Source of the DNA: Promethearchaeota archaeon
GTDB lineage: Archaea > Asgardarchaeota > Lokiarchaeia > Sigyniarchaeales > SOKP01
Direction: 5' to 3'
Assembly: GCA_019058295.1 (NCBI GenBank)
Contig: JAHPZI010000029.1
Location: 1 to 58,483, forward strand
Length of the DNA: 58,483 nucleotides
The notes under the pieces were generated by a model. It worked only from the letters and a program-made list of their open reading frames with translations, was not told the DNA's origin and did no database searches. The translations under genes were made by a program, and so were the position numbers. Positions 30,603 to 55,321 of this stretch are shown in pieces; the first letter of the stretch is position 1; every line of letters starts with the position of its first letter.

Positions 30603-30646
30603 TCCAATTTTCTTAATTTATTAGAAAATTTTTATGTTTATAATTA

Positions 30647-34725: not shown

Positions 34726-36009
34726 ATGTCAAAGTTTAAAACACAAGCTATTAATAATGAAATTCTCGAGAAATTAAGCCTTGAAAATAGATACACCATT
34801 CTAAATGAAAATCTAGGACCTGTACTATCTGATGCTCAATTTAATTTTCTTAAAAAAGTTCAAGAAATTTGTTTAAATTTTGAAAAGGAGAAAAATATTA
34901 CTCATGGGCCTGAAGAAGATATTTATGATTGGAGCCCTTATTTCGGCAAAGAAGGTCTTATTACGAGACAGCATGCGTTCGAATGTATTGATTTAAATTA
35001 TGAAGAACACGGTTTAGCAGCAGATTTTATGAGATTACTCGCACTTGCTTTATTTGATCCCCAATTTGCAATGAGTACAGGAGCAACGGTAATATGTGTT
35101 AATCCAATTTACGAGCATCATGAAAATGTCCCTATAAGATTAGAAGCCTTAAAAGAATTAGTAACTGGCAAAACCCCCGGATGTCTTCTTATAACTGAAC
35201 CAGAAAGAGGTTCTGATGCAGTCCACCAATTAACGACATGTGAAGAGCAGCCAGATGGCAGTTTTATTTTAAATGGAGAAAAAATATACAATACGAACGC
35301 TCCAAAATCAAAGTGGGCAGTAGCTTACGCAACCGCAGAAAAAAATAACGGTAATATGATGGCTCAATTCATGATAAATACTTCTTGGGAGGGCTGGAAT
35401 TGCGAAAGAGTGGGAATACCTTGGGTACCGAAACTTTACTTAGGAAAAGAACGATTAGTTAACCTTAGAGTACCAAAAGAATATGTATTAGGGGGAATTG
35501 GAAAAGGTCGTGAGCATCTTTTTGAGGGCTTAATACCGGAGAGAATTGCAATTGCTTTACGGGGTGTTGGTGAAAGTTGGGGTGCTCTTTCTCATGCTAT
35601 TATTTATGCTAATATGAGAAAACAATTTGAAAAGGAAATTTTATTTTTTCAAGGAGTAGGATTCCTTTTAACTGATTTATGGGCGAGAACAATATCTCTT
35701 ACACATGGTTTATTAAAGTTTTGTGAATCTTACGATGAAAAAAAGAAGAAATATGGTAAAGAAGTGCCAGACAACATCTCTCAGGCAATGGTTGCCGCTG
35801 CGAGTCAATATAAATACAGTTGCGCTTTATTATCTAAAGATGTTTGCTATGAATCTGCTAATGTAATGGGGGGTGCTGGACTCTGTGATAACACCTTGAT
35901 GGATGATTATTTACATATATCAAGAATTCAGGAAATTATAGGTGGTTCTCGTCAGATACAACAATTTATCATGTCGCGAGGGCTAAGAAGGTTTTATAAA
36001 CTTCTCTAA
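34726..36009 (+). CDS. Acyl-CoA dehydrogenase (IVD/LCAD-type active site)
   Basis: ITEPERGSD, LNGEKIY, ERIAIA, RKQFEK..FQGV, MGGAG, EIIGGS. Confidence 0.92.
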   Translation: MSKFKTQAINNEILEKLSLENRYTILNENLGPVLSDAQFNFLKKVQEICLNFEKEKNITHGPEEDIYDWSPYFGKEGLITRQHAFECIDLNYEEHGLAADFMRLLALALFDPQFAMSTGATVICVNPIYEHHENVPIRLEALKELVTGKTPGCLLITEPERGSDAVHQLTTCEEQPDGSFILNGEKIYNTNAPKSKWAVAYATAEKNNGNMMAQFMINTSWEGWNCERVGIPWVPKLYLGKERLVNLRVPKEYVLGGIGKGREHLFEGLIPERIAIALRGVGESWGALSHAIIYANMRKQFEKEILFFQGVGFLLTDLWARTISLTHGLLKFCESYDEKKKKYGKEVPDNISQAMVAAASQYKYSCALLSKDVCYESANVMGGAGLCDNTLMDDYLHISRIQEIIGGSRQIQQFIMSRGLRRFYKLL

Positions 36010-36158
36010 TTTCTTAAAAAGATGCAGATATAGGTAAGAGAAGCTTTTTTTTCTATTTTTTTTATTCACAAGCCATTTTCAAATAGATGTTAAGAAAATT
36101 AAAAAATCAAGGTTAATTCATAATTGGTGTAGAAATAAAATTAATCATAGATTTATTA

Positions 36159-36719
36159 ATGAAAAAAAAAATTAGATTATCGGGTCGTGGAGGACAAGGG
36201 ATTAAATTTTTAGGAAGTGCTTTAGTTAGAGTTGCAATGGAGGCAAACTATTACGCAACACTTTCTGTCGACTATACACCTTCTGTACGAGGCGGCCCGA
36301 TTTTTTGCGATGTTATCCTAAGCTCAGAGGAAATTTCTTATCCGTTCTGTGACGAAGACGCCGATATTTTTATTGCTTTAGATCAAGAAGGATTTGAACG
36401 AGCAAGTGAATGCATATGTGAAAAAACTATTTCCTTTATTGATTCCAACACAGTAAATAACGCTGAACAAGTAATCCAGAGAGGTATTATTCATCGGATT
36501 CCTCTTACCAAATATGCAGACGATAATCAGGTAGCTAAAACAGTAAATATACTCTCTTTGGGATTTCTCTCGGAATACCTTAGTGAAAATGGAAAAATTA
36601 ACTTAAAAGAAGAACATTACTTCCAAGTTTTTAATAAAATGCCAGAAAGGATTAGGGAAATTAACATTCGAAGTTTTCAGGTAGGGAAAACTCTTTATAA
36701 AGAATGTTCTCTCAATTGA
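36159..36719 (+). CDS. korC: 2-oxoacid:ferredoxin oxidoreductase gamma subunit
   Basis: IRLSGRGGQG, YTPSVRGG, NILSLG. Confidence 0.88.
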   Translation: MKKKIRLSGRGGQGIKFLGSALVRVAMEANYYATLSVDYTPSVRGGPIFCDVILSSEEISYPFCDEDADIFIALDQEGFERASECICEKTISFIDSNTVNNAEQVIQRGIIHRIPLTKYADDNQVAKTVNILSLGFLSEYLSENGKINLKEEHYFQVFNKMPERIREINIRSFQVGKTLYKECSLN

Positions 36720-36895
36720 AATTATTACATAATTGTTTTATAATAAACATTATTTAGAAACTACAGTTTTCAACATAGTTATGGTTTTAATATAAAATAC
36801 CTATACTTTAAAAAAGCAAATTTAAAAGAGAAATTAACATTTTTAAAGCATAATTAGGAAAAATTTAACCAGAAGTTTAAGAGAGATAAAAAAAG

Positions 36896-37201
36896 TTGAA
36901 ATTAGAATCTACTCGAAGTCCCATTTTACCACCACCTCACCTTCAGAAAAAGTATGAAGTTATAATTGAATCTGAACAATGTGATGGTTGTAAAATCTGT
37001 GTGGATTTTTGTCCTAAAGAACTTTTAGAGGTTAGCGAAAAGACCAACAGTCGCATGCTTCATTATGTAGTCATAACTGAACCTGATGACTGTTTAGGAT
37101 GTAAACAATGCGAACGATTATGTCCCACTACTTCCATATTTATTAAAGAAATTGATTTAGAGGATGATGCCATAAATGAATCTAAAACAAAGCGAAAATG
37201 A
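36896..37201 (+). CDS. korD: 2-oxoacid:ferredoxin oxidoreductase delta subunit (2x[4Fe-4S])
   Basis: CDGCKICVDFCP and CLGCKQCERLCP; directly upstream of the alpha subunit. Confidence 0.88.
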   Translation: MKLESTRSPILPPPHLQKKYEVIIESEQCDGCKICVDFCPKELLEVSEKTNSRMLHYVVITEPDDCLGCKQCERLCPTTSIFIKEIDLEDDAINESKTKRK

Positions 37202-38333
37202 TCCACATAATAAGGCAATTTTAACTTCTGGAAATTATGCCTCTGCAGAAGGAGCCATAGCAGCAGGGTGTTTGCTCTTTGCGGGGTATCCTATTACACC
37301 TTCCTCAGAGATTGCTGCTTATATGTCTAGACGTCTTCCAGAAGTTAATGGTACGTTTATTCAGATGGAAGATGAGTTGGCGTCCGTTGCTTGTTGCTTA
37401 GGGGCCTCTTATGCGGGCACTAAATCGATGACTGCTACTTCAGGTCCTGGGCTTTCGCTTATGGCTGAAAATATTGGTTTAGGGGTTATGCTGGAAGCTC
37501 CAGTAGTTATCGTAACGATAATGCGAGGAGGACCAAGTACCGGCCAGCCGACAAACGCTTCCCAATCTGATGTGTATCAAGCTCGCTATGCTTCTCACGG
37601 GGATTATCAAATTATTGTTTTGGCACCATCTACGGTTCAAGAAATGTATGATTTAACAATACGTGCGTTCAATTTAGCCGAAAGATATCGTACCCCCGTA
37701 ATTGTTGCATCAGATGGAATCCTAGGACAGATGATGGAACCTGTATATTATCATTCTAATTTTGAAAAAGTAGAGCGTAAAAAACCACAAGTTCCACCAG
37801 AAAAATATAAACCGTTTGAGGTATTTGACGATGATCTTGTACCAGGAATGGCTGTAGCTGGAACTGATTATTATTTTTATGTTTCAGGGTTAACTCACGA
37901 TATTGAAGGTAATCCAGATATGACTCCAGAGGGGGCAGAAACACTTATTAAGCGCCTGTGTGATAAAATTACAAGAGCTCGTCCTGAAATTAATGATTGG
38001 GAGGAAAAATATATAGATGATTCTGATACAGTTGTATTATCCTATGGGATTAATGCGAGGGGAGTACCTGAAGCGATTGAACAAGCACGTCAACAAGGAC
38101 ATAAAATGGGTTATGTGCGACTTAAAAGCCTATGGCCTTTTCCTGACGAGTTAATGGAAAAATTAGGTCGGCAAGGGGTTTCAAAAGTAATTGTATCTGA
38201 GATGAATTATGGAATGCTAATACGAGAAGTTCAACGATTCCAACATTTATTTGAAGTTTCTGGCATAACTATTCCTACAACTATTCCATTTAGTCCAAAA
38301 TTTATTTATAAGAAGATGATAAAGGAGGTTTAA
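37176..38333 (+). CDS. korA: 2-oxoacid (2-oxoglutarate-type):ferredoxin oxidoreductase alpha subunit
   Basis: FAGYPITPSSE, QMEDE, TATSGPG, MRGGPSTG. Confidence 0.93.
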   Translation: MNLKQSENDPHNKAILTSGNYASAEGAIAAGCLLFAGYPITPSSEIAAYMSRRLPEVNGTFIQMEDELASVACCLGASYAGTKSMTATSGPGLSLMAENIGLGVMLEAPVVIVTIMRGGPSTGQPTNASQSDVYQARYASHGDYQIIVLAPSTVQEMYDLTIRAFNLAERYRTPVIVASDGILGQMMEPVYYHSNFEKVERKKPQVPPEKYKPFEVFDDDLVPGMAVAGTDYYFYVSGLTHDIEGNPDMTPEGAETLIKRLCDKITRARPEINDWEEKYIDDSDTVVLSYGINARGVPEAIEQARQQGHKMGYVRLKSLWPFPDELMEKLGRQGVSKVIVSEMNYGMLIREVQRFQHLFEVSGITIPTTIPFSPKFIYKKMIKEV

Positions 38334-38336
38334 TTA

Positions 38337-39203
38337 TTGATCCCATCAGATAATTTATCAACCCCAGAAGAAGCTCTTAATCATCCTTTAAAAGATTGGC
38401 TAAACTTGAATCGTTTTATTTTTTGTCCAGGCTGCTTGATCGGAACAGTCATTACATCGATAACAACTTGTTTAAAAGAAAGAGGGTACACCTCAAAAGA
38501 TTACGCTATAGTGTCAGGTATCGGATGCACTGGCCGAGCCAGTGGTTGTTTTAAGGCACCAGCTTTTCATACTACTCATGGAAGAGCGATTCCCTTTGCG
38601 ACAGGACTTAAGCTAGCAAATCCTGAATTAGAAGTTATTGTCCTTTCAGGAGATGGGGATCTTTTTGCCATTGGGGGTAATCATTTTATCCATGCTGCTA
38701 GAAGAAATATTGAAATTACAGTAATTTGTGTAAATAACAATGTTTATGGGATGACAGGAGGTCAAGTTGCCCCTACAACTCATGTAGGTGACATAACTTC
38801 GACAACTCCTTATGGAAATATGGAACCTCCTTTCAATTTAATAAGTTTGGCAGCCGCTTCTGGAGCCACCTATGTCGCTCGATGGCCTGGATATGATACG
38901 CTTCGGTTACAGAAAAGCATTTTGAAAAGTCTAGATAATGAGGGTTTTAATTTCATCGAGGTGCTTGCACCTTGTTTCATTCAATATGGAACTAAAAACA
39001 GACTGGGAGATGCGGTAGAGATGTTGGAATGGATGAAAAAACAGATTAAAATCGAAACAGATTGTCCCCCTCATATGGCGACCTTAGATTTCAAAAAAGG
39101 TGTTATCATTTGTGGCGAATTTGTTGAAGATAAAAGAGAAGGATTTACAAAAAGAATGGAGCAAATTCGGGAAAAGGCAAAAAGCAAAAAAATTAAAAAA
39201 TAA
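38337..39203 (+). CDS. korB: 2-oxoacid:ferredoxin oxidoreductase beta subunit
   Basis: FCPGC, SGIGC, HTTHGRA, GDGD...NNNVYGMTGGQ. Confidence 0.93.
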   Translation: MIPSDNLSTPEEALNHPLKDWLNLNRFIFCPGCLIGTVITSITTCLKERGYTSKDYAIVSGIGCTGRASGCFKAPAFHTTHGRAIPFATGLKLANPELEVIVLSGDGDLFAIGGNHFIHAARRNIEITVICVNNNVYGMTGGQVAPTTHVGDITSTTPYGNMEPPFNLISLAAASGATYVARWPGYDTLRLQKSILKSLDNEGFNFIEVLAPCFIQYGTKNRLGDAVEMLEWMKKQIKIETDCPPHMATLDFKKGVIICGEFVEDKREGFTKRMEQIREKAKSKKIKK

Positions 39204-39213
39204 CGGTGAAAAG

Positions 39214-41571
39214 ATGACAAAAAGCGAAGACAAACCTTTCGGAGGGCCAGATATTGGAGTTTTTCTTTGTAAGTGCGGAAAAAATATTGGTGGTACTATA
39301 GATATCGACCAATTAGCCGAAGAGATTCAGAAGATTCCAGAAGTTAAATTAGTTCAAGTTAATTCTTATACATGTTCTGATCCCGGACAGTTAGAAATTG
39401 AAACAGCCATAAATGAGCAAGGAATAGAAAAGATAGTTGTGGCAGCCTGTAGTCCGAGATTGCATGGACCAACATGGAAAAAACTTCTAAATAGAGTTGG
39501 AATAAACCCTTCTTTAGTTGAAGTAGCTAACATTCGAGAACAATGTAGTTGGGTACATCTTTCGGAGAAGCAAGAAGCTACAAAAAAGGCCAAAGAACTA
39601 ATTGAGATGGCGATTGCTAAAGCTGAATTATTAGAAGAAGTTGATGATATTATTGTTCCTGTTAAACAAAGAGTACTAATCATCGGAGGCGGTGTGGCAG
39701 GAATTCAAGCTGCTTTAGATTTAGCTGACGATTACAAAATCATTCTTGTTGAGAAATCCCCTACAATAGGAGGAAATATGGCTCTTATCGACAAAACTTT
39801 TCCAACAATGGATTGTTCCATTTGCATTTTAGGACCAAAAATGGCGGATGTGGGGAATCATGAGAATATTAAACTAATTTCTAACGCAGAAGTTATAAGC
39901 ATCTCAGGTTATATTGGTAATTTTGAAGTCACTATTAAAAAGAATCCTCGATATGTAAATGAAGATCTTTGTACAGCATGTGACGATTGCGTCGATGTTT
40001 GCCCTGTAAATGTTATGGATGAGTATTCTGGGAACTTAGGTTGGAGAAAGGCAATTTATATACCCTACCCCCAGGCTGTACCAGCTAGCTATATAATCGA
40101 CGAAAAAAATTGCTTGGGTCTTTCACCTCTAGCTTGTGGAAAGTGTAATTCCGCATGTGAAAAAGAGGCCATCAATTACGAAGATACCAAGAAATTTTTC
40201 ACCTATAAAGTTGGTGCTATTATTGTTGCCGTTGGTTTTGAGAAATTTGATCCTTCTAAAATCCCAGAATATGGATGGGGTCGTTATCCCAATGTGATTA
40301 CAACATTTGAATTTGAAAGATTAATCAATGCGGCCGGACCAACGTATGGGGAACTAGTACGACCTAGTGATCTTCGTAAACCAAAAAAGGTTGCTTTTAT
40401 CAATTGTGTTGGGTCGCGAGATCTTAGATTCAATCCTCATTGTTCTAACTTTTGTTGTATGGAGAGTATTAAGGATAGCCTTCTAATTAAGGAGCATTGG
40501 CCTGAAGTTGAGGTTGTTATTTTTTATATCGATATTAGGGCATTCGGTAAGGGATTTGAAGAATTATATTTACGTTCGAGAGAAGAGGGTGTATTATATA
40601 TTCGGGGTCGTCCAGGTCAAATAAAAGAAGATCCCAAAACCAAAAGCCTCATTGTTACTGTTGAAGACATAAGTACAGAAACAATATTATCTGAAGAATT
40701 TGATTTAGTTGTTCTCTCTGTTGGAGCAGAAGGATCCTCGGAATCTATTCCATTTCCAATTGCTAAGGATAAGAAAGGATTTTATATTGAAGCTCATCCA
40801 AAACTTAGACCTGTGGATACACCTACTGATGGTGTTTATATTGCAGGTGGAGCTGAATCTCCGAAAGATATTCGCGAATCGGTAACCCAAGCCAGTGCTA
40901 CAGCAGGTCGAATTGCCAAATTGCTTTCAAAAGGAGAATTCCAAGTGGAACCATTGTATGCGTTTGTGGATGTCGAAAAATGCACAAGTTGCGGCATTTG
41001 TGTGTCTTGTTGTCCTTACAATGCTATTACCATTGATCAAGAAAAAAAAACACCAGCCTATATCAGACCTATCTTATGTAAAGGATGCGGAACATGTGCC
41101 GCTGATTGCCCTTCAGACGCCATTACTATGACAAACTTTACAGATAAAATGATCTTTTCTCAAATTGATATTGCACTTCGCGAAAATGCTTCCGAGAAGG
41201 TATTGATTTTTGCATGTAATTGGTGTTCCTATGCTGGTGCTGACTTGGCTGGAACCAGTAGAATCCAATATCCAACTAACACTAGAATTATTAGAACCAT
41301 GTGTTCTGGAAGAGTAGATATCGATTTTATTAAATATTGCTTTGAAAGAGGTGCCGGAGCGGTTATGATAACAGGATGTCATCCGCAAGATTGTCATTAC
41401 ATATCTGGCAATGATTATGCCCTAAAAAGAGAGAAGAAAATTAGAAGCTGGATGAAAAAAAACAATATCGCAGACGAGCGTTTTATCATTGAATGGATGT
41501 CCGCTGCTGAAGGTAAAAAATTTGCTGAAATAGTCTCGAAAATTAGCAGTATAGCTTCAAGGCAATACTAA
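39214..41571 (+). CDS. hdrA: HdrA-like flavoprotein fused to an MvhD-like [2Fe-2S] domain
   Basis: GVFLCKCG, VAACSPRLH, NIREQCSWVH, IGGGVAG, KTFPTMDCSICI, CVGSRD, ferredoxin motifs; MvhD part FACNWCSYAGAD, RTMCSGRV, GCHPQDCHY. GGTGA precedes ATG 39214. Confidence 0.95.
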   Translation: MTKSEDKPFGGPDIGVFLCKCGKNIGGTIDIDQLAEEIQKIPEVKLVQVNSYTCSDPGQLEIETAINEQGIEKIVVAACSPRLHGPTWKKLLNRVGINPSLVEVANIREQCSWVHLSEKQEATKKAKELIEMAIAKAELLEEVDDIIVPVKQRVLIIGGGVAGIQAALDLADDYKIILVEKSPTIGGNMALIDKTFPTMDCSICILGPKMADVGNHENIKLISNAEVISISGYIGNFEVTIKKNPRYVNEDLCTACDDCVDVCPVNVMDEYSGNLGWRKAIYIPYPQAVPASYIIDEKNCLGLSPLACGKCNSACEKEAINYEDTKKFFTYKVGAIIVAVGFEKFDPSKIPEYGWGRYPNVITTFEFERLINAAGPTYGELVRPSDLRKPKKVAFINCVGSRDLRFNPHCSNFCCMESIKDSLLIKEHWPEVEVVIFYIDIRAFGKGFEELYLRSREEGVLYIRGRPGQIKEDPKTKSLIVTVEDISTETILSEEFDLVVLSVGAEGSSESIPFPIAKDKKGFYIEAHPKLRPVDTPTDGVYIAGGAESPKDIRESVTQASATAGRIAKLLSKGEFQVEPLYAFVDVEKCTSCGICVSCCPYNAITIDQEKKTPAYIRPILCKGCGTCAADCPSDAITMTNFTDKMIFSQIDIALRENASEKVLIFACNWCSYAGADLAGTSRIQYPTNTRIIRTMCSGRVDIDFIKYCFERGAGAVMITGCHPQDCHYISGNDYALKREKKIRSWMKKNNIADERFIIEWMSAAEGKKFAEIVSKISSIASRQY

Positions 41572-41703
41572 TAATATTAGATGCTAAAACTCTAATTATA
41601 GAAAATACAGCTAAAATAACTTTTTCAACTACTCTTGATATTATCTTTAAATATGTAAAATTTATATAGCTAATACAATTTTTAAATAATTAACTAAATA
41701 ATG

Positions 41704-41738
41704 TTCATTTTCAGAAGAAAAAATCTTCTGAAAATGAA
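41704..41738. promoter_or_regulatory. Perfect 15-bp inverted repeat (operator or hairpin)
   Basis: TTCATTTTCAGAAGA-AAAAA-TCTTCTGAAAATGAA, about 90 bp upstream of the thiolase operon. Confidence 0.65.
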
Positions 41739-41827
41739 TGTTTTTCAGAAATTGAATTGCAAATTCGTAATAATGTTTAGAAATCGTATAAATTTATGAA
41801 AAAAAAAACCCCTAAAACTGGTTAATC

Positions 41828-43051
41828 TTGAATAAAGTAGCAATAATTGGAGTGGGACATACTAAATTTGGTAAATTAGAAGAAAAGAATTTGATGGACC
41901 TATTATGCGATGCGTCTCTTGAAGCACTCAACGACTCTAATACTAACGATGAAAACTTTGATTCAGTTTATTTAGGAGCTATGTGTCCTGGAGAATTTAA
42001 TCACTTATCGGGAATTGCAAGTGCTCTTGTTGATAGATTAGGTTTAATACCTGCTGCTGCGGATCATTTAAAAAATGGACCTGCCAGCGGGGGATCTGCG
42101 GTAAAAGCAGGGTTTCATGCAATAGCTTCAGGAATGAATTCTATGGTTTTAGTTGTTGGAGGTGAGAAGATGACACATATTTCCACTCCAGGATATATTA
42201 CTTCAGCTGTTGCAACTCTTACCCATCATCAAGCAGAGAGGAGACATGGTACATCACTTCCTTCTTTGGCAGGTTTACTATCTCGAATTTATCTTGAAAA
42301 ATATAATGCAAAATTGGAATGGTTATCCGATATTGCCATAAAAAATCATCGGAATGGAGCATTGAATCCTATTGCTCATTTTCAAAAAAAGATTGAGGAT
42401 TTTATGGAAAGTGCTGTTAAGAAAGGAAAAGGTAATTGGAATACAATTTATGAATTTCTCAGTGATGATAACAGTAATCCGATAATAGCAGATCCATTAC
42501 GGCTTTTTCATATTTGTCCTATTTCGGATGGTGCTGCAGCTATTATTTTATGTAATGGTGAAATCGCAAAAAAATTTTGCGACAATCCAGTTTTAATTAC
42601 AGGAATTGGTCAAGCCACTGATACCCATATCACATATGAAAGAGAGGATATTACTGTCTTAAATGCATTAAGAGTTAGTTCAGATCAAGCTTATAGAATG
42701 GCAAAAAAGACTCCAAAGGACATTGATGTTGCTGAACTCCATGATGCTTTTGAAATCTTAGAAGCTGTGGAAAGTGAAGATATCGGATTTTTTAAAAAAG
42801 GAGAAGGCGCTAGGGCAGCACATGAAGGTCGAACTGAAATTGATGGAGAAATTCCTATTAATCCCTCTGGTGGTTTAAAAGCTAGAGGTCATCCACTTGG
42901 AGCGACAGGCGTTGCTCAAGTTGTTGAATTAGTGTGGCAACTAAGGGGGGAGGCTGGAAAAAGACAGGTTTCAGATGCCCAAACAGGAATAACGTGCAAT
43001 TTCGGAGGATTTGGAAATAATATTATTTCAATCTTAGTTGAAAGGATGTGA
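41828..43051 (+). CDS. SCP2-type thiolase-fold protein lacking the nucleophilic Cys
   Basis: VAIIGVG, GGEKM, KNHRNG, PISDGAAA, ELHDAF, NPSGGLKARGHPLGATG; NGPASGG where thiolases have xACASGG. Confidence 0.9.
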   Translation: MNKVAIIGVGHTKFGKLEEKNLMDLLCDASLEALNDSNTNDENFDSVYLGAMCPGEFNHLSGIASALVDRLGLIPAAADHLKNGPASGGSAVKAGFHAIASGMNSMVLVVGGEKMTHISTPGYITSAVATLTHHQAERRHGTSLPSLAGLLSRIYLEKYNAKLEWLSDIAIKNHRNGALNPIAHFQKKIEDFMESAVKKGKGNWNTIYEFLSDDNSNPIIADPLRLFHICPISDGAAAIILCNGEIAKKFCDNPVLITGIGQATDTHITYEREDITVLNALRVSSDQAYRMAKKTPKDIDVAELHDAFEILEAVESEDIGFFKKGEGARAAHEGRTEIDGEIPINPSGGLKARGHPLGATGVAQVVELVWQLRGEAGKRQVSDAQTGITCNFGGFGNNIISILVERM

Positions 43052-43057
43052 TATTTA

Positions 43058-43414
43058 ATGAGTAACAAGGAAAATTTAGTTAGTAACAAGTGTAAAAAAT
43101 GTGGTTATTTACAAGATATAAGCCATCTAAGATGTCTAAAATGCAAAAATAACACATTTGATACTATAGAAGCTAATGGCACTTGTGTTTTATTGACTTA
43201 TACAATATTAAAAGCTCCACCTTTGGAATTTAGAGATAAGGGATCTTATGCTCTTGGGGTTGTACAGTTTGAAAACGGTATAAGAGCTCTTGGACAGATA
43301 TTTCCTAAAGAAAATTTAAGAATAGGAATGAAATTAAAACCTGTGTATGAAAAAATTTGTAATAATCTTGATGGTAATGAAGTTTATAGTTATGTTTTCA
43401 AATTAATTGAATAA
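43058..43414 (+). CDS. DUF35 Zn-ribbon/OB-fold protein (thiolase partner)
   Basis: CKKC...CLKC, GTCVLLTYT, YALGVV, IGMKL; adjacent to the thiolase gene. Confidence 0.9.
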   Translation: MSNKENLVSNKCKKCGYLQDISHLRCLKCKNNTFDTIEANGTCVLLTYTILKAPPLEFRDKGSYALGVVQFENGIRALGQIFPKENLRIGMKLKPVYEKICNNLDGNEVYSYVFKLIE

Positions 43415-43433
43415 TTAAAAAGGAGGATTAAAA

Positions 43434-45113: not shown

Positions 45114-45116
45114 TTT

Positions 45117-46562
45117 CTAACTCACCTTCTTTTTCCTTTCTCTTGTAAATTTTGAGATTTTAGGTAATAAAGGTATAAATTCATGTGGATCTCCAAATAC
45201 AGGAATATTCCTTTCAAATAGTTTTTTTAGAAGTCTCTCCCAATCTTCAGGACAATTAATTCGCTTTATGATTGGAATTAGTGGTTTTTTATGTTTATAA
45301 CCTAAGGTTAGTGCTTCTATCATTTTATTTTCATATGATGGATCTAATCTAGTCCTAAAGGATAAATCACTGTTGAAATAAAAGCTTGGTAAATCTACTA
45401 TCATTCCATCTATATTTGTATCTGATAATGCGTTATCAATAATTTTATAAAAAGCTTCACTATTGAAAACTTGTGCAGAAACATCTAATGGATTTTTTGA
45501 GCTTGTTCCAAGTGTAAAAAAAAGTTGTGTTATTTGTTCTTGAATATCAGGGCTGAAGGGAGGAACTTTCATTCCTGCTTTTTCAATTAGATCAACCAAG
45601 ATAACACCATAACCACCACTACTGCTAATAACAGATAGATTTTTTAGATCAAAAAGTCCATAAAATTCTATTAAATAGGCAAAAGATAGCAATTGTTCGA
45701 TAGAATCCAATTCAATAATATTATATTGTGTAAAAATCGCTTTCCACATATGATTGTCTCCTGAAATTGTTGCTGTATGAGTTTTTGCCGCAATTGAGCC
45801 AGTTTCAGTTTGGCCCCCTCTTACTATTGCAATAGGTTTTTTATTTTGTTTCAGGATTTTTTTTAATTCGACCCCTCTCTCTTTTTTAATTCCCTCAATA
45901 TAACACAATATTATCTGGGTCTCGGGGTCATTAATTAAAAAATAGAGTAAATCAACAAAATCTAAGTCAGTACCATTTCCGAAAGAGAATACTTTACTAA
46001 AGTGTAATCCTAACTGATTTCCACCATAGATCATTAAATTACATATTCCGCCGCTCTGAGCTAGAAATGCAATATCACCGCTCTCTGCCGAGAATTTCGG
46101 TCTCCATGCAATACCTAATTTTGGATAATATAAACCAAGACCATTAGGGCCTAATAGTCTCACTTTATTTTTAGCTCTTCTTAATAATTCTCTTTCTAGT
46201 TTTCTCCCTTCTTCTGTTCCAGAATCAGAGAATTCTGCGGTGAATACACTAGCCAATTTTACACCTTTCTCGACACACTCATCCATTACTTCTAAAATTA
46301 ACGAAGGTGGAATTGATATAAAAACAAAATCAACTTCACCGGGAATAGCACTTAATGAAGGATAGATCATATTTTTATCGAATCCAGGTATTTCTTTTAT
46401 GGTTGGGTTCACAGCGTATAATTTTCCTTTAAAATTCTCAGCATGGTTTCTAAAAAAGAAGAAATTTCTTTTTTTCGAAGTTCCAATAACCGCCATTGAT
46501 TTAATATTATTAATAAAAGATATATCTTTTACATCTATGTCAGAAGTCTCGAAATGTGTCAT
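45117..46562 (-). CDS. ADP-forming acyl-CoA synthetase alpha subunit (AcdA-like)
   Basis: SMAVIG, YAVNP, RLLGPNGLG, AQSGG, SFGNGTD, YIEG, KTHTA (phospho-His), NPLD. Confidence 0.88.
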   Translation of the reverse strand: MTHFETSDIDVKDISFINNIKSMAVIGTSKKRNFFFFRNHAENFKGKLYAVNPTIKEIPGFDKNMIYPSLSAIPGEVDFVFISIPPSLILEVMDECVEKGVKLASVFTAEFSDSGTEEGRKLERELLRRAKNKVRLLGPNGLGLYYPKLGIAWRPKFSAESGDIAFLAQSGGICNLMIYGGNQLGLHFSKVFSFGNGTDLDFVDLLYFLINDPETQIILCYIEGIKKERGVELKKILKQNKKPIAIVRGGQTETGSIAAKTHTATISGDNHMWKAIFTQYNIIELDSIEQLLSFAYLIEFYGLFDLKNLSVISSSGGYGVILVDLIEKAGMKVPPFSPDIQEQITQLFFTLGTSSKNPLDVSAQVFNSEAFYKIIDNALSDTNIDGMIVDLPSFYFNSDLSFRTRLDPSYENKMIEALTLGYKHKKPLIPIIKRINCPEDWERLLKKLFERNIPVFGDPHEFIPLLPKISKFTRERKKKVS

Positions 46563-46692
46563 TTAAACTAAAAAATTAATTGTTTGCTAATTTTAATAAA
46601 GAAAATAGTTAAAAGAATAAAAATATATACTCGTTGGACTTTAAAGAGATAAGACTTCTTCCATTTTGTTCATAATTATATTAATCAACATA

Positions 46693-47586
46693 TTAAGTTT
46701 TAATTATTGGAGTTTTAATTTCAGGAACATTATTTTTTATGAATTCTATAGATTCCTTTGCCTCTTGAAAAGTCAACTCAAAAACTATTGGCCCCTTAAA
46801 ATTATACGCATGAAGTGTTTTTAAGAAGTTTACTGGAAAATTCTGTCCCGTCCCTAACGCAGCATGGTCAGCACCTCCACCAGAATTGTAATCTTGTAGA
46901 TGAATTTCACTTGTTATATCAAGGTTTTCTTCAGTAACTTCAACGAGATCGACATCGCCAGAGTAACCCCCCAAGAAATGAGCGGTGTCAATACATAAAT
47001 TGGGTCCTTTCAATTTTTTGATTATTTCTAATGTTTTTTGGAAGGGAAATTCAATATTTTCAATCGCAATTTTTGTTTTATCCATCTTTGTTTCTTTAAC
47101 TAACTTCTTTACGCTTGAAACAGCAAAATCAACGAATAAATTAGCAATAAATTCTTTATATTTTGGCTCAATCTCCATACTCATAATCTCAGCTGCAAAT
47201 GCTCCTGAAGGATGGAGTACAAATACTTCAATATCAGGTTCCAAAAATTTGAACGTGTTATATGCATCAATTAGACTTTGAACGCTGGCATCCCGGATAA
47301 TTTTATTTGGACTTACCAATTCAATGGTCCATATAGGGAAATGTGCGGAATACGTTATATCATACTCCTTTATAAAAGTTTTCAATCTTTTTTTCTCATC
47401 ATCAGGCATTTGTATCGGTAATATTTGAAATAAATCTAAGGAAATCTCGCAATGTTGATATCCTTTTTCAATTGCTTCTAAAATAATATCTGAAAAGCGA
47501 AAACTCAAGAAGCTATCAAGCCCCTTCTCTTTTTTAAATACGCTTGCGATGTTTTCGACTTCTATAGGTGTAATTCCAAATCGCAT
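46693..47586 (-). CDS. Xylose-isomerase-like/AP endonuclease 2 TIM-barrel metalloenzyme
   Basis: SAHFP, VLHP, IENIEFP, IDTAH, EIHLQD, DH, VFEL. Confidence 0.85.
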   Translation of the reverse strand: MRFGITPIEVENIASVFKKEKGLDSFLSFRFSDIILEAIEKGYQHCEISLDLFQILPIQMPDDEKKRLKTFIKEYDITYSAHFPIWTIELVSPNKIIRDASVQSLIDAYNTFKFLEPDIEVFVLHPSGAFAAEIMSMEIEPKYKEFIANLFVDFAVSSVKKLVKETKMDKTKIAIENIEFPFQKTLEIIKKLKGPNLCIDTAHFLGGYSGDVDLVEVTEENLDITSEIHLQDYNSGGGADHAALGTGQNFPVNFLKTLHAYNFKGPIVFELTFQEAKESIEFIKNNVPEIKTPIIKT

Positions 47587-47726
47587 AAAAATATATTCTT
47601 ATTTTATAATTATATTTATTATAATTACAAAGTATTAAATTCTTTTATTTTTTTAAAAAATAAAACAGTTAATTATAAGCAATAACTAGTTTTAAAAATA
47701 AAGATAAATATTAACATGGGATTCCT

Positions 47727-48242
47727 TTGACTGACGAAGATAAAAAAATCGAAGAAAGATCTGAGAGAATTATTAACCTTTTTAATGCATTTAAAGGTAA
47801 AAATCTTGGAGAGGCTCCTGGACCTATTCCTCCTTTTACTAAATGGTTGAATGGTGTAATAATTTCCGCTAAAAGAGGTGAGGTTGAGCTAGAATTCGAG
47901 ATTCGTCCTGAATGGGGGAATCCTACAGGATTACTTCACGGCGGAATGCAATGTGGATTAATGGATGACGCTATTGGAATAATGACTGCAACTTTAGGTT
48001 ATGAAGGGTTTCTAATCTCCATCGATTTTCATGTTGATTACTTAGGAAAGGCCAAAATTGGCGAGAAAATTCGAGTTATCGGAAAAATTATTCGAGAAGG
48101 CAAAAATGTCGTAAATGCCATTTCACAAATCTATAAAATAGATGGCAAATTAATTGCTTCTGGTAATGCAAACTTATTAAAAACTAAATTTAAACCAGAT
48201 TATGTTAAAGAAGTTGATAAGATTGATTATAGGGATCTTTAA
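47727..48242 (+). CDS. PaaI/hotdog-fold acyl-CoA thioesterase
   Basis: NPTGLLHGG....MDD motif. Confidence 0.9.
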   Translation: MTDEDKKIEERSERIINLFNAFKGKNLGEAPGPIPPFTKWLNGVIISAKRGEVELEFEIRPEWGNPTGLLHGGMQCGLMDDAIGIMTATLGYEGFLISIDFHVDYLGKAKIGEKIRVIGKIIREGKNVVNAISQIYKIDGKLIASGNANLLKTKFKPDYVKEVDKIDYRDL

Positions 48243-48407
48243 AGTGATTAACCCTTGAAAAACATATCTTTTTGAAATCCTATTTTTAAATTCTATAAAT
48301 GAAAAAGTCTAAGATAATAAATTCTAAAGTAAGATTTTTTTAATAAGTATAAATTTTAAAATAAAGTATTCCAAAATTATAGAAAAAATAATTGAATTTT
48401 GAAAAAA

Positions 48408-49406
48408 ATGTTAACTCAAGAATATGTTAATGATGTTTTAAAAAACCAATGCGTTAATCTTCGATTCCATGCAAGAGGTGGACAAGGAGGTGTTACTGCT
48501 TCTAATTTATGCGTAGAAGCGTTCAAGGGTCGTGGAATTTGCCAGCCTAAATTTGGAGCGGAACGAGCGGGGAGTCCTACAGAGAGTTATGTTCGTCTTT
48601 CGTTTGATTATGATTTAATACGATCAAACGAACAAGTTTATGGTCCTCATTTTGTTTCTGTATTAGATCCTTCATTACTTACAGAAGTGGATGTTACTGC
48701 CGGCATGCCTCAAGGTGGTTGGTTGATTATAAATACTGTCATGAATCAATTAGAAATCCAAGATATCGTTAAAAGAAAAGATTTAAACATCGCTACTATT
48801 GATGCAACTAATATTGCTATGGAGATCTTAGGAAGAAATATAACAAATACAATCATTTTAGGTGCTTTAATTAGAGTTTCTCACTTATTCTCTCTTGAGG
48901 ATTTATCAGATGCGATTATGAGACGATTTAAAGGTGAAATAGCTGCGAAAAACATTGCCGCAATTAAACAAGCTATTGAAGAAACATGTTTGTATGAAGT
49001 CAATATTGAACTTGACTTTTCAAAAGATACAAAAGTTCCTTGGCAACAAGTTGAGCCAGGTTTGCCAGGATATAAAGAATTAGATAAGGCTGGAGTGTGG
49101 TACTGCGATGAAAATGTCATAAAAGTTGGAAGCGATCAAGTAAATACAGGTTCTTGGGGCGAATGGGAAATGGTTTGGGATAAGGAAACATGTACTGATT
49201 GTGCTCAATGTTGGTTTATTTGTCCTGATTTTGCAATTCTACGAGAAAAAGGAGATGATGGTCTATATCATATGGCTGGAATTGACGTTTTCCATTGCAA
49301 ATCATGTCAAAATTGCTTGGAAATTTGTCCCGTTAATGCTATTAGCAAAAGATCAAAACAAGGTCCAGCGTCTTGTGCTGTACCTGAAGAAACTGGAGGT
49401 AATTAA
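48408..49406 (+). CDS. Pyruvate-type oxidoreductase gamma-delta fusion
   Basis: RFHARGGQGGVT, FGAERAGSP, NTIILGA (gamma); NTGSW, CTDCAQCWFICPD, CKSCQNCLEICP (delta). Confidence 0.9.
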   Translation: MLTQEYVNDVLKNQCVNLRFHARGGQGGVTASNLCVEAFKGRGICQPKFGAERAGSPTESYVRLSFDYDLIRSNEQVYGPHFVSVLDPSLLTEVDVTAGMPQGGWLIINTVMNQLEIQDIVKRKDLNIATIDATNIAMEILGRNITNTIILGALIRVSHLFSLEDLSDAIMRRFKGEIAAKNIAAIKQAIEETCLYEVNIELDFSKDTKVPWQQVEPGLPGYKELDKAGVWYCDENVIKVGSDQVNTGSWGEWEMVWDKETCTDCAQCWFICPDFAILREKGDDGLYHMAGIDVFHCKSCQNCLEICPVNAISKRSKQGPASCAVPEETGGN

Positions 49407-49408
49407 AA

Positions 49409-50638
49409 ATGTCCATAGAACCAATGAAGATTTTTTTTAAAGAGATTAAAGAACCTACTGAAACCACAATGATAGGAAATTATGCGGTAGCTGGAGGAGT
49501 TACGCAAACGGATCCCGATGTTATTTGTGCATTTCCAATTACTCCTCAGACGCAATCAGTAGAAGGATTATCTGATGTAGTCCATCAAGGACGATTAAAA
49601 GCAGCCTTTGTAAATGTCGAATCTGAATTAGCTGCAATAAGTTATTCAACAGCTGCATGTGCTGCGGGGGCCAGAACTTTTACCGCAACCGCTTCTCAAG
49701 GGTATTTATTAATGACTGAAGCATTACCTATGGCTGTAGGATGGAGAGTCCCTCTTACTATGATGATCTCAGCGAGAGCATTTAACTCTCCAAATTTATC
49801 AATTTGGAATAGTTGGGAATTTACTATGACTAACTCTGAACTCGGATGGAATTGCATTGTATCTGAAAATGTCCAAGAGACATATGATGCTGCGATTCTT
49901 TCTGTAATGATATCAGAGGATTCGTTATTTCCAACGATGTTTGTTCATGATGGTTTTATAATATCTCACTCTGTTCAGAATTTATCTCTCATTCCTGACG
50001 AAGTAGTGAGAAATATGACACCAAAGAAGAAAAGACATACGATTAATCCAAAACACCCCGGGACATGGGGCGGAATTGTCACTCCTAGCTTCTTTATGGA
50101 GGGAAGAATGAATCTAGAAGAAGCAAAAAAGCCCGTCTTAGGCATAATGGAAGATGTTTACAAAAGATTTGAAAAAGCTACGGGCAGGCAATACAGATCA
50201 ATTAGAACTTTTAATTTGGATAATCCTTCAAAGACAGCATTCATAACGATGGGCTCCATGTGTGGGAATATAATCAGCTATATGACTAAGCATAAAGACG
50301 TTGGTCTTATAAAAATAAAAACCTACCGTCCCTTTCCCTACGAAGACTTACAAAAAATTATACAAGATCACAATATAGAGAAGCTAATTATTTTAGAGAA
50401 ATCAGATGCATTAAATGGATTATTACCCCCTTTTTCAATGACAATTGCTTCAGCATTATATCCCCTTGGAACGTTATTTAGAAGCTTTATAGTCGGATTA
50501 GGTGGTCGCGATGTTACAAGAGACGAATTTGATATAGCTAAAAAGAAGATGGAAACCGTAAAAGATATGAAAGGGCCTCTCTATTCATATCTAGGTGTGA
50601 GAGAAACAAAAGATAAAATTCATGGGGTGAGTAAATAA
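49409..50638 (+). CDS. porA: Pyruvate-type oxidoreductase alpha subunit
   Basis: AFPITPQT, NVESE, RTFTATASQG, DGFIISH, YRPFP, GLGGRD. Confidence 0.92.
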   Translation: MSIEPMKIFFKEIKEPTETTMIGNYAVAGGVTQTDPDVICAFPITPQTQSVEGLSDVVHQGRLKAAFVNVESELAAISYSTAACAAGARTFTATASQGYLLMTEALPMAVGWRVPLTMMISARAFNSPNLSIWNSWEFTMTNSELGWNCIVSENVQETYDAAILSVMISEDSLFPTMFVHDGFIISHSVQNLSLIPDEVVRNMTPKKKRHTINPKHPGTWGGIVTPSFFMEGRMNLEEAKKPVLGIMEDVYKRFEKATGRQYRSIRTFNLDNPSKTAFITMGSMCGNIISYMTKHKDVGLIKIKTYRPFPYEDLQKIIQDHNIEKLIILEKSDALNGLLPPFSMTIASALYPLGTLFRSFIVGLGGRDVTRDEFDIAKKKMETVKDMKGPLYSYLGVRETKDKIHGVSK

Positions 50639-50640
50639 AA

Positions 50641-51729
50641 ATGTCGAAACCAGAGAGAAATGTTATACAAATTGATGATTTATTGGCCAGAGATGGAAAA
50701 TGTAATGTGTTATTTCTAAATTACGATAATGAAGCCTTTATGAATACAGGAATTCAAGAAAGTGGTGGTACTCCACCTCATGCTGCTACAACTACAGGTC
50801 CTGCTGGAGAAAAAGTTCCTGGGAAAGTTGGAGTGAAACAAGATTTAGTAACTCCTTTTGGATTTTATGGTACAAAATCAACATTTTTAGCAACTGTTAA
50901 TCCAGCTTATCCAAACGATTTGATAGGAAAGATTGTCGAAGCGTTAAAAACAAATGGAGGAGCTTTCATTCAATCATATGCCGATTGTATGAGAGGCTGG
51001 AGGCATGCTTCTCAAGATGCTGTAAAAGTTTCTAAACTCGCGACCGATTGTGGTTATTGGCCATTATACACAATAAAAGTAAAAGATGGGATGCCAACTT
51101 TTTCATATTTTAGAGGTTTAGAAATAGATAAAGAAAAATTTGTTGATTATTTAAAATCTATGGGCAGATTCAGACATCTTTTTAGGCCAAAATTTATGGA
51201 AAAAGAAATCGATGAGATAATTTATTATACCGAACAACGAAATGAAAAATTAAAAGGACTAATTGAGCAATTTGGATCAGAAAAACCAGTTGATGTATAT
51301 AGAGTAAATCGGAAAGCATTAGAACCACAAAAACATCTGCTTCCTGGACATGGTCTGTGTCCTGGTTGCGGTGCGGGTATGTTTTTAAATCAAATGGCAA
51401 CAGCTGCACAATTAGTTGCTGGGACAAATATTATCTATGTAAATAACACAAGCTGTTCTGAAGTCTCTACTTCAAAGGATTTTGTTACTTCTTGGACTGT
51501 ACCATGGGTACATCATCTATTTGAATCAGGAGCAACAATCGCTGATGCAATTTCAACAACATATAAAATCATGAAATCAAAAGGTCTGTATAACGGTGAA
51601 GTACCATACCTCATACATATTGGTGGTGATGGCTCAACTTATGACATTGGTTTCCAATTTCTTAAGGCTGCTTTGGTAAGATCAAGTAGTTTTGTAGAAA
51701 TGAATGAATACCTTTTAAATCAGAAATAA
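50641..51729 (+). CDS. porB: Pyruvate-type oxidoreductase beta subunit, circularly permuted
   Basis: Begins with NVLFLNYDNEAFMNTGIQESGGTP (normally mid-protein) and ends with PGHGLCPGCG...TSCSEV...GGDGSTYDIGFQ (normally N-terminal). Confidence 0.9.
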   Translation: MSKPERNVIQIDDLLARDGKCNVLFLNYDNEAFMNTGIQESGGTPPHAATTTGPAGEKVPGKVGVKQDLVTPFGFYGTKSTFLATVNPAYPNDLIGKIVEALKTNGGAFIQSYADCMRGWRHASQDAVKVSKLATDCGYWPLYTIKVKDGMPTFSYFRGLEIDKEKFVDYLKSMGRFRHLFRPKFMEKEIDEIIYYTEQRNEKLKGLIEQFGSEKPVDVYRVNRKALEPQKHLLPGHGLCPGCGAGMFLNQMATAAQLVAGTNIIYVNNTSCSEVSTSKDFVTSWTVPWVHHLFESGATIADAISTTYKIMKSKGLYNGEVPYLIHIGGDGSTYDIGFQFLKAALVRSSSFVEMNEYLLNQK

Positions 51730-51807
51730 TTTCTTTTTTAACCTCTTATTTTTTTTTTAAATGTTTATTTGAAAATTGTTTTATTATTTTATATCTTTTT
51801 AATTTTT

Positions 51808-52581
51808 ATGGTTATAAAAATTGAGAAGAAAACTATAGATAAGGGAAAAATCTACACAATAATAATTGATAATCCTGAAGTAAAGAACGCAGTTGATGGA
51901 CCAACAGCTAAAGAACTTGCCGATGCGTTTCGAGATTTTGAACAAGACAATAATGCTTTAGTTGCTGTTTTATGGGGTGCTAATGGAACATTTTGCGCGG
52001 GGGCAAACTTAAAAGCTATCGCTGATGGGCGTGGTAATAGGATAGATACTAAAGGAGATGGTCCTATGGGACCTTCTAGAATGGTTCTCTCAAAACCCGT
52101 CATCGCAGCAGTGGCGGGATACGCAGTCGCAGGTGGTCTTGAACTTGCATGTTGGTGTGATATGCGAGTTGTTGAGAAAAACGCGATATTTGGAGTTTTT
52201 TGTCGTAGATTTGGAGTACCTCTTATTGATGGAGGAACTGTACGCCTTCCTAGATTAATTGGGTTAAGTCGAGCAATGGATATGATTCTTACAGGGCGCC
52301 CTGTAACTGCTGAAGAAGCTTATTCTTGGGGTCTTGCTAATCGCATTGTTGAAAATAATCAATCGAGACCAGAAGCAGAAAAATTGGCAAGAGAAATTGC
52401 TTTTCATCCTCAAACATGTATGAGAAATGATCGTTTATCAACTTATGAGCAATTTGGGATGAGTATAAAGGATGCAATGGCTAATGAATTCGAATGGGGC
52501 AGAAAAACCTTGGCTAGTGGAGAATATTTAGAAGGAAGTGAAGCATTTACACAAGGTAAAGGAAAACATGGAAAATTCTAA
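51808..52581 (+). CDS. Enoyl-CoA hydratase/crotonase family protein
   Basis: FCAGANL, KPVIAAVAGYAVAGGLEL, GVPLIDGGTVRLPRLIG. Confidence 0.93.
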   Translation: MVIKIEKKTIDKGKIYTIIIDNPEVKNAVDGPTAKELADAFRDFEQDNNALVAVLWGANGTFCAGANLKAIADGRGNRIDTKGDGPMGPSRMVLSKPVIAAVAGYAVAGGLELACWCDMRVVEKNAIFGVFCRRFGVPLIDGGTVRLPRLIGLSRAMDMILTGRPVTAEEAYSWGLANRIVENNQSRPEAEKLAREIAFHPQTCMRNDRLSTYEQFGMSIKDAMANEFEWGRKTLASGEYLEGSEAFTQGKGKHGKF

Positions 52582-52628: not shown

Positions 52629-53033
52629 ATGATAGCATTCGAAGAATTGAGAGTGAAAACTCCAAAAAGAGAAGTTCTTATAAATATAACGAGCGATATT
52701 AATAAAATTGTAAGAAATAGTAAAATAGAAGAAGGAGTCTGTCGAATTTTTGTCCCCCATACAACAGCGGGAATTACTATCAATGAAAACGCAGATCCTG
52801 CAGTAATGAAAGATATAATAAATTATTTGAATAAGTTAATTCCACAAAGAGCAGGCTTTTCTCACATGGAGGGCAATAGCGATGCGCATATAAAATCTTC
52901 CTTAACTGGACCATCTTTAGATGTTATTATTCACAATGGTAGATTAGTATTGGGGACTTGGCAAGGGATTATGTTCGCAGAATACGATGGTCCGCGTCAT
53001 AGAAAGGTATATATACAAGTTCAAGGGGAATAA
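52629..53033 (+). CDS. yjbQ: YjbQ/UPF0047 family protein
   Basis: PHTTAGITINENADP, GNSDAHIKS, LGTWQ, EYDGPR. Confidence 0.95.
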   Translation: MIAFEELRVKTPKREVLINITSDINKIVRNSKIEEGVCRIFVPHTTAGITINENADPAVMKDIINYLNKLIPQRAGFSHMEGNSDAHIKSSLTGPSLDVIIHNGRLVLGTWQGIMFAEYDGPRHRKVYIQVQGE

Positions 53034-55168: not shown

Positions 55169-55321
55169 GAAAATTCACTTCAATATTTTTTTTTAATATT
55201 ATTTCAATTTGCATTATTAATTAATCTTTTAAATTTCTCTTAAGATAAAAAAATAAAGAATTGAATATTTACTTAATCATCTAAATTCTAAGAAAATACA
55301 TGATGGTTTACTTTTACTCAA

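Follow-up and report, generated by a model that had tools for sequence, protein, structure and literature searches.

Does an 18-kb run of acyl-CoA and 2-oxoacid genes in a Lokiarchaeial genome encode one pathway, or do several gene sets with separate histories lie side by side in it? The question arises from a contig of 58,483 nucleotides (JAHPZI010000029.1, assembly GCA_019058295.1) of a Promethearchaeota archaeon belonging to the Lokiarchaeia (order Sigyniarchaeales, SOKP01), and by the window we mean this whole stretch. Between positions 34726 and 52581 it carries genes for an acyl-CoA dehydrogenase (ACAD), two 2-oxoacid:ferredoxin oxidoreductases (OFORs), a fused HdrA::MvhD flavoprotein, a thiolase-fold protein (thl*) with its DUF35 partner, the large subunit of a methylmalonyl-CoA mutase (MCM), the alpha subunit of an ADP-forming acyl-CoA synthetase (ACD), a TIM barrel protein, a thioesterase and a crotonase-fold protein. 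A preliminary description had listed these genes and had read them as one catabolic cluster of non-canonical enzymes, suggesting a pathway variant that had not been described before. Open reading frame (ORF) calling and profile scans with Pfam and NCBIfam, run over this region and its flanks, found every gene named there in its place, and the functions given to the genes were broadly right. The boundaries of the cluster were also sound, the flanks consisting of glycosidases, radical-SAM genes, a LarA-like gene and amidohydrolases. What changes is the interpretation: with a probability of roughly 65%, we consider the region to be a patchwork whose modules are conserved separately and which agrees with the amino acid fermentation published for Asgard archaea, and not one new pathway operon.

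Module structure of the region

The window proteins were mapped onto 41 related genomes and onto 80 further loci that carry cpPorB, the circularly permuted beta subunit of the second oxidoreductase (cpPOR). The whole gene order was found only in the window's own genome (G000, 79% complete) and in its two closest genomes (G005 and G007), and sub-blocks of it are conserved to different depths. The 18 kb can therefore not be regarded as one conserved unit; the synteny expected across relatives exists for the sub-blocks and not for the region as a whole. In G005 (locus L048, contig C118) and G007 (locus L047, contig C184) the flanking genes are 93-96% identical to those of the window, but the thl* protein there, a short subtype of 387 residues, shares only 70% identity with that of the window, and the mutase gene has been lost, which indicates that a cassette was swapped or inserted recently. 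Within the region there are seven gaps of 130-256 nt and one strand switch, and oligo-T tracts follow the ACAD stop codon (two of T8), the hotdog thioesterase gene (T7) and cpPorB (T10), so that about 8-10 transcription units can be expected. A 9-mer search for a shared operator over ten intergenic regions gave AT-rich noise only.

At least five modules can be distinguished, each of which would have its own evolutionary history. Module (a) would be a lone divergent ACAD. Module (b), korCDAB-hdrA::mvhD, has a patchy distribution, and its HdrA2-type flavoprotein is presumably the dedicated electron partner of the KOR-type oxidoreductase. Module (c) would comprise thl*, DUF35 and the mutase large subunit, module (d) the ACD alpha gene (with the TIM barrel) and the hotdog thioesterase, and module (e) porGD-porA-cpPorB followed by an EchA5-like crotonase and YjbQ. 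Both oxidoreductases would convert 2-oxoacids into acyl-CoA, CO2 and low-potential electrons. The electrons from KOR would be taken up by HdrA::MvhD, and either the thioesterase or ACD, the latter with a beta subunit from another locus, would release the acids. The modules probably share substrate pools, such as CoA esters and ferredoxin, and do not form one linear pathway. The 18-kb order would be recent, with the thl*-DUF35-mutase cassette and the TIM barrel gene placed into an older neighbourhood of KOR-HdrA, ACD and cpPOR.

In the scheme published for Asgard archaea, 2-oxoacid:ferredoxin oxidoreductases produce acyl-CoA and reduced ferredoxin, the acyl-CoA is converted into free acid with formation of ATP, the ferredoxin is re-oxidised through Hdr-type modules, and some lineages have propionate and butyrate branches (PMC7015854). 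The logic proposed for the region, from 2-oxoacid through acyl-CoA to free acid and ATP, matches this scheme in general. Imachi et al. 2020 (PMC7015854) present no gene-level cluster of this kind, and neither a permuted PorB nor a Cys-less thiolase is mentioned there. Several members had been called non-canonical, and for the permuted PorB and the Cys-less thl* this is justified: these enzyme variants are lineage specific and were found in no paper. The HdrA-MvhD fusion, the porG-porD fusion, the split mutase and the unlinked ACD beta subunit are ordinary archaeal arrangements and no sign of a new pathway.

Several points weigh against a patchwork. The sampled genomes are akin and not independent of each other, so that the synteny counts overstate the support. 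The modules may be co-regulated, and the repeated co-occurrence of (b), (d) and (e) in several species speaks for a closer functional coupling than the word patchwork conveys. In G023, thl* is directly preceded by a korDABC paralog, which hints at a link between KOR, thl* and the mutase. No substrate is assigned to either oxidoreductase, to thl* or to the crotonase. Finally, the ACD beta subunit (PF13549) was not found in G000, at its 79% completeness. Of 26 related genomes, 23 have the gene, G007 among them. The idea that ACD forms no ATP here, as it would have no beta subunit, was rejected because relatives have the gene and the genome is incomplete; ATP formation by ACD is plausible.

It is unlikely that the region encodes one co-ordinated pathway, a new variant that would take amino acids or branched-chain acids by way of 2-oxoacids and acyl-CoAs to free acids or succinyl-CoA, ACD supplying the ATP and HdrA disposing of the electrons. 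All the enzyme classes do lie side by side, parts of the neighbourhood recur, and in G022 thl* is the immediate neighbour of ACAD. Against this stand the division into multiple transcription units and the restriction of the whole order to three near-identical genomes, two of which have no MCM, and the chemistry has gaps as well. A search for PF01039 carboxyltransferases in G000 and 15 other genomes of its family found none, and only genus g14 of the sister family had one. The known route from propionyl-CoA to methylmalonyl-CoA requires a propionyl-CoA carboxylase or a transcarboxylase, and the proposed route to succinyl-CoA is therefore unsupported. Propionate formation in the published scheme is tied to methylmalonyl-CoA decarboxylase and biotin proteins (PMC7015854), which were not found in the family of the window. 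There is no 3-hydroxyacyl-CoA dehydrogenase in the cluster (six copies lie elsewhere in G000), thl* lacks both catalytic cysteines and is no thiolase, and the mutase has neither a B12 subunit at this place nor a normal start codon.

Oxidoreductase modules and their neighbours

The genes described here lie on the plus strand unless stated otherwise. The KOR-type oxidoreductase is encoded by korC (gamma subunit, 36159-36719; Pfam POR, with PRK08537 and OorC both below cut-off), korD (delta subunit, 36896-37201; Fer4 families and an OorD-like match), korA (alpha subunit, 37176-38333; NF006412 at 482.6 bits, above the cut-off of 411) and korB (38337-39203; Pfam TPP_enzyme_C, with PRK09628 at 240 bits, below the cut-off of 364). 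The eight cysteines of korD, enough for two 4Fe-4S clusters, are invariant in the alignment, and the gene overlaps korA by 26 nt. korB is a beta subunit that binds thiamine diphosphate (ThDP), in canonical order. The HdrA::MvhD fusion follows at 39214-41571. Its ORF opens at 39100, and the conserved start is the ATG at 39214, 10 nt past the korB stop. The HdrA2 profile NF040770 scores 1080.5 bits, just under its cut-off of 1100, over profile positions 2-766 of 777, and the FlpD/MvhD domain occupies residues 701-816 of the long ORF. In comparison with HdrA2 of Methanosarcina acetivorans (NF040770), the fused architecture is the same and the similarity is close to the cut-off over the full length. 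In contrast, the gene in the window is the last one of a korCDAB operon, has no adjoining HdrB or HdrC, and resides in a host that is not a methanogen. For these HdrB/HdrC partners, no CCG-domain gene is present in the window; 48 CCG matches occur elsewhere in G000.

An hdrA::mvhD ortholog (84-96% identity) is present in 6 of the 41 genomes, always directly after korB, and similar HdrA-MvhD fusions are found in most relatives. Electron disposal through HdrA had been proposed for the whole cluster; the position after korB ties it to korCDAB, and nothing ties it to the other genes. KOR and HdrA may be in direct contact. Where contigs allow, the module adjoins the ACD/cpPOR block in eight more cases: the genomes G003, G005 and G007 and the loci L069, L103, L108, L116 and L135. 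In these five loci the hdrA::mvhD ortholog lies within 10 kb upstream of cpPOR, and in G003 it is next to ACD alpha, in each case with neither thl nor MCM in between. Another family has korDABC-hdrA-mvhD with unfused HdrA and MvhD (L053; G030, contig C17, 662000-680000), indicating that the linkage of OFOR, HdrA and MvhD is older than the fusion. Separate from this module, HdrA paralogs interrupted by at least two in-frame TGA codons were seen in G000 (contig C1, 162318-164207) and in most relatives; these are probably selenocysteine-containing HdrA proteins.

The second oxidoreductase consists of a porG-porD fusion of the gamma and delta subunits (48399-49406; Fer4 domains, PorC_KorC at 148.7 bits, above cut-off, and PorD_KorD at 55.9 bits, below its cut-off of 60.05), a porA alpha subunit of the POR/VOR type (49409-50638; POR_N and PFOR_II, with PorA_Arch at 298 bits, below its cut-off of 550) and cpPorB (50641-51729), the ThDP- and FeS-binding beta subunit, with PorB matches in two stretches of swapped order. 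As all cpPOR subunits fall below equivalog cut-offs, no substrate can be assigned. The permutation noticed at the outset was borne out by three comparisons, with the NCBIfam PorB profile, with PDB 9bt4_C and with canonical paralogs from the same genome. Residues 229-348 of cpPorB correspond to residues 6-116 of 9bt4_C and residues 23-193 to residues 119-282, and residues 21-204 align to positions 119-296 of the PorB profile, so the protein is not co-linear with its family. The same swap of halves is evident against the paralogs on contigs C2 and C19 of G000. The break falls within the ThDP motif, between GDG (329-331) and YDNE (28-31). These residues and the four cluster cysteines (C116, C240, C243 and C272) are invariant or nearly so in 14 orthologs. 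Both termini hold a copy of a segment of about 18 residues from the break, a pattern that an origin by duplication followed by truncation would leave. The four-subunit pyruvate:ferredoxin oxidoreductase of M. acetivorans (PDB 9bt4) has the same subunit set, the same ThDP motif residues and the same four cysteines in the beta subunit. The gamma-delta fusion is also known from the delta chain of oxalate oxidoreductase (PDB 5c4i). What differs from both 9bt4 and 5c4i is the circular permutation of the beta subunit.

A scan of cpPorB against Pfam-A gave no match at E <= 0.001. When 1.84 billion representative proteins were searched, the only proteins co-linear with cpPorB among the matches listed were P0001, P0002 and six short fragments, and nearly all the others listed had the canonical order. 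An AlphaFold2 monomer model was of moderate confidence overall (pLDDT 66, pTM 0.74) and had low confidence in the cofactor and interface loops, and Foldseek with this model returned PFOR/OOR beta chains in partial, order-dependent alignments with a TMq of about 0.37; the model adds little to the evidence from the sequence. A literature search for a circularly permuted OFOR subunit retrieved nothing relevant.

Each of the four families of the order has full-length cpPorB orthologs (49-97% identity), and the best 80 cpPorB loci are all in Promethearchaeota-type (Lokiarchaeia) metagenome-assembled genomes (80/80). Five of these Loki-type genomes (L058, L063, L072, L109 and L129) are recorded under the titles Thor-, Hod-, Hermod- or Odinarchaeota. 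A contig titled 'Nanopelagicaceae bacterium' (L096, DATKTW010000155.1) has a cpPorB operon 81% identical to that of the window and is probably mis-binned. The order porGD-porA-cpPorB is intact in 9 of 10 relatives fetched (in G033, porGD and porA were not detected beside cpPorB) and in all 41 loci with at least 9 kb of sequence upstream of cpPorB, and it is conserved order-wide. Three single-contig genomes of the sample (G032, G033 and G038) have cpPorB, and in G032 and G038 it is accompanied by porGD and porA. Upstream counts refer to these 41 loci and downstream counts to 67. In 32 of 41 loci (within the family), the 10 kb or so upstream of cpPOR contain an ACD alpha or hotdog gene, and a hotdog gene precedes the POR operon in 23 of 41. 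On the other side, cpPorB is followed by an enoyl-CoA hydratase (ECH) gene in 42 of 67 loci and by YjbQ in 45.

The ACD alpha gene itself (45117-46562, minus strand; Pfam CoA_binding_2 and Succ_CoA_lig) converges on the mutase gene with a gap of 3 nt. It scores 270 bits with TIGR02717, against a cut-off of 567, and its last 90 residues are unmatched. Behind it, also on the minus strand, is the gene for a xylose-isomerase-like TIM barrel (46693-47586; Pfam AP_endonuc_2), weakly CbiR-like with 96.9 bits for NF041277 against a cut-off of 105. The TIM barrel occurs at this position only in G000 and G005, and a relative with 49-54% identity follows cpPorB in 8 other loci. The next gene (47727-48242) had been labelled PaaI. 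It does encode a hotdog-fold thioesterase (Pfam 4HBT), but the match is a generic one (TIGR00369 at 45 bits, above cut-off; PaaI at E = 0.005), and the PaaI label was dropped. In two congeners, G006 (locus L017, 16334-17128) and G002, a MEDS-domain sensor protein is encoded between the hotdog gene and porGD; it is absent from the window.

Downstream of cpPorB is the EchA5-like crotonase-fold gene (51808-52581; NF006108 at 400 bits, above 273). The ORF can be read from a TTG at 51769, and the family match starts near the Met at 51808. It matches mycobacterial structures from structural genomics very closely (PDB 4z0m, 3r9q and 3qka; E = 7e-93 to 4e-91, 314 bits over 245 residues). This closeness to EchA5-type proteins suggests a possible transfer between bacteria and Lokiarchaeia. 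The protein has the segment FGVFCRRFGVP, as in the EchA5-type structures, which we take to be the site of the second catalytic Glu of true hydratases. YjbQ/UPF0047 (52629-53033; TIGR00149 at 173 bits), named 'secondary thiamine-phosphate synthase', belongs with the POR block. Its pairing with cpPOR was seen in loci L057-L136 and may be a cofactor-supply link to a ThDP enzyme. G006 and G002 have a sulfatase gene between ECH and YjbQ that the window does not have.

The lone ACAD (34726-36009; Pfam Acyl-CoA_dh_M and Acyl-CoA_dh_1) lies upstream of korC. Its N domain was not detected with Pfam, and with 2-7 paralogs per related genome it is a member of a subfamily that is expanded in this archaeal family. 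The Glu position of MCAD-type enzymes (YEG) is Gly, and a Glu occupies the 'PERI' position of helix G, aligned with the Glu of ACAD c18. We take this Glu to be the base, as in IVD/LCAD-type enzymes, and from the sequence we read the protein as probably active. Outside the region, the upstream flank (27837-32575) encodes a GH78 alpha-L-rhamnosidase and a GH127 beta-L-arabinofuranosidase, and the downstream flank (53933-57015) a LarA-like 2-hydroxyacid racemase and two Amidohydro_2 proteins.

The cassette of thl*, DUF35 and the mutase

The thl* gene (41828-43051; Thiolase_N and Thiolase_C_1) encodes an archaeal/SCP2-type thiolase-fold protein, and the report that it lacks the catalytic cysteines is correct. 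The nucleophile loop reads KNGPASGG in place of xACASxG, with Pro for the nucleophilic Cys, and HDAF stands in place of HDCF, so that the acid/base Cys is gone as well. Both changes are found in 14 of 14 aligned orthologs. Among 120 database homologs, NGPASGG is present in 119 and HDAF in 117, and three thl* motifs each recur in 113-119. The protein retains the His of GHP (GHPLGATG) and has a Cys in CNFGG. A canonical thiolase paralog in the same genome has GACASSG and HDCF. Since both catalytic cysteines are absent, thl* would not be able to carry out thiolysis. Thiolase-fold retro-aldolases of the Ltp2/Sal type have their catalytic Tyr in a YDHF/YDCY motif (PMC12329534). An Ltp2-type aldolase was considered for thl* and rejected, as thl* has the His of HDAF at that Tyr position. 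With neither the cysteines nor this Tyr, the predicted protein is neither a thiolase nor an aldolase of a known type. The best solved relative (4yzo_A) lacks both cysteines too and is named 'putative acyl-CoA acyltransferase'; titles and abstracts retrieved for 4YZO pointed to no characterising paper. Many database homologs of thl* are annotated as 'acetyl-CoA acetyltransferase'.

The DUF35 gene (43058-43414; Pfam OB_ChsH2_C, Cys4 zinc ribbon with CKKC...CLKC and an OB fold) begins 6 nt downstream of thl*, and the two are adjacent in 10 genomes. The fold and the adjacent DUF35 partner are thus as in archaeal/SCP2-type thiolases, whereas both cysteines are gone here, and no HMG-CoA synthase gene is adjacent. 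Compared with the thl* of G003, the window copy shows 83% identity. Between hdrA::mvhD and thl* there is a perfect 15-nt inverted repeat (TTCATTTTCAGAAGA / TCTTCTGAAAATGAA, 5-nt loop, 41704-41738), which could be a terminator hairpin or an operator.

The orphan mutase large subunit (frame 43419-45113; TIGR00641 at 741.5 bits, above the cut-off of 303.8) was first called from 43665 and was described as short at its N terminus. The frame is open from 43419, and relatives begin about 80 codons upstream of 43665, so the idea of a truncated mutase was rejected. Seven relatives start with an ATG ('MFSxEEL...') that the window copy has lost. The 5' part (43419-43664) is open and contains no ATG, GTG or TTG; a GGAGG at 43422-43426 is followed by ATT (43434), ATA (43440) and ATT (43446). 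Either translation begins at a non-canonical codon or the gene is in decay. The translation contains REYAGF and PSLRL, and we assume that their Tyr and Arg bind the carboxylate of the substrate. Neither a B12 subunit nor MeaB is encoded beside the gene. The two pairs of these genes in G000 belong to complete mutase operons (large subunit, B12 subunit and MeaB) on contigs C7 (18321-21068) and C14 (38806-41577). Chaperone and ribosomal genes surround the operon on C7. Next to the one on C14, in divergent orientation, are genes for a Bcd-like ACAD and for EtfAB, whose EtfA is fused to a ferredoxin; this operon may encode an isobutyryl/butyryl-CoA mutase. These two contexts do not explain the window copy.

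The triad of thl*, DUF35 and MCM is found together in 8 genomes, usually with a true thiolase as neighbour, to which a canonical ACAD and ECH may be added. This conservation is one of several features that would fit a route from 2-oxoglutarate to propionate in modules (b) and (c). In such a route KOR would form succinyl-CoA, the mutase would convert it into methylmalonyl-CoA, thl*/DUF35 would work through an enolate, as a decarboxylase (without biotin) or an epimerase of methylmalonyl-CoA, and ACD or the thioesterase would release propionate. The altered active site of thl* is nearly invariant, which points to selection, and a protein without the nucleophile has kept the GHP His and gained the Cys in CNFGG. 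Two forms of kor lie directly upstream of thl*, namely kor1-hdrA in G000, G005 and G007 and the paralog in G023. Although the family has three mutase paralogs, PF01039 was not found in the 15 other genomes searched, and genus g14 has the carboxyltransferase but no thl* ortholog. No methylmalonyl-CoA epimerase matched above cut-off, only sub-threshold members of the VOC family. Nevertheless, we regard this route as improbable. To our knowledge, there is no thiolase-fold methylmalonyl-CoA decarboxylase. The complementary distribution of carboxyltransferase and thl* follows family lines and may reflect ancestry, and kor and thl* are not neighbours in most genomes. Moreover, thl*-DUF35 has no mutase next to it in G005, G007 and G016, and the mutase of the window may be decaying after the loss of its start codon.

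A comparable arrangement is the scpA-argK-scpB-scpC operon of Escherichia coli ('sleeping beauty mutase'), where a mutase stands beside a biotin-independent conversion of methylmalonyl-CoA into propionyl-CoA and release of the CoA ester. The decarboxylase of that operon is a crotonase-fold enzyme, and MeaB/ArgK is encoded within it. In the window, by contrast, MeaB and the B12 subunit are encoded elsewhere, and the crotonase is EchA5-like and not YgfG-like in the listed matches. It is very doubtful that 2-oxoglutarate is converted into propionate by an undescribed branch without biotin, made up of KOR-HdrA::MvhD, thl*/DUF35 and the orphan mutase, in which KOR would be connected directly to an HdrA with flavin-based electron confurcation, beside cpPOR. 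Hardly any more credible is a chance juxtaposition without functional meaning, since the high paralog counts in G000 (13 ACD alpha genes including the window copy, 8 ACAD-like genes, 10 thiolase-fold genes and 5 OFOR loci) and a module content that varies between close relatives would allow an 18-kb run of such genes to arise by rearrangement, but ACD alpha or hotdog genes accompany cpPOR in 32 of 41 loci and KOR-HdrA lies beside this block in at least 9 genomes.

Meaning for Lokiarchaeial metabolism

The general chemistry of the region is already published (Imachi 2020, PMC7015854). Real enzyme changes in it are hidden by automatic annotation, as thl* is labelled 'acetyl-CoA acetyltransferase' and cpPorB has no Pfam-A match at E <= 0.001. 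The comparison also reveals which genes travel together, namely cpPOR with ACD alpha, the thioesterase, the EchA5-like crotonase and YjbQ, and KOR with HdrA::MvhD. Bench work would best be directed at the conserved sub-blocks, that is, cpPOR with its neighbours, KOR-HdrA::MvhD and thl*-DUF35-mutase.

Among the close relatives of the lineage that provided the host of eukaryotes, the Lokiarchaeia are the best studied, and models of eukaryogenesis lean on their syntrophic metabolism based on 2-oxoacids. For metabolic reconstruction in this group, a cluster such as this one should not be read as one pathway, and neither a thiolase step nor the conversion of propionyl-CoA into succinyl-CoA should be assumed from it.

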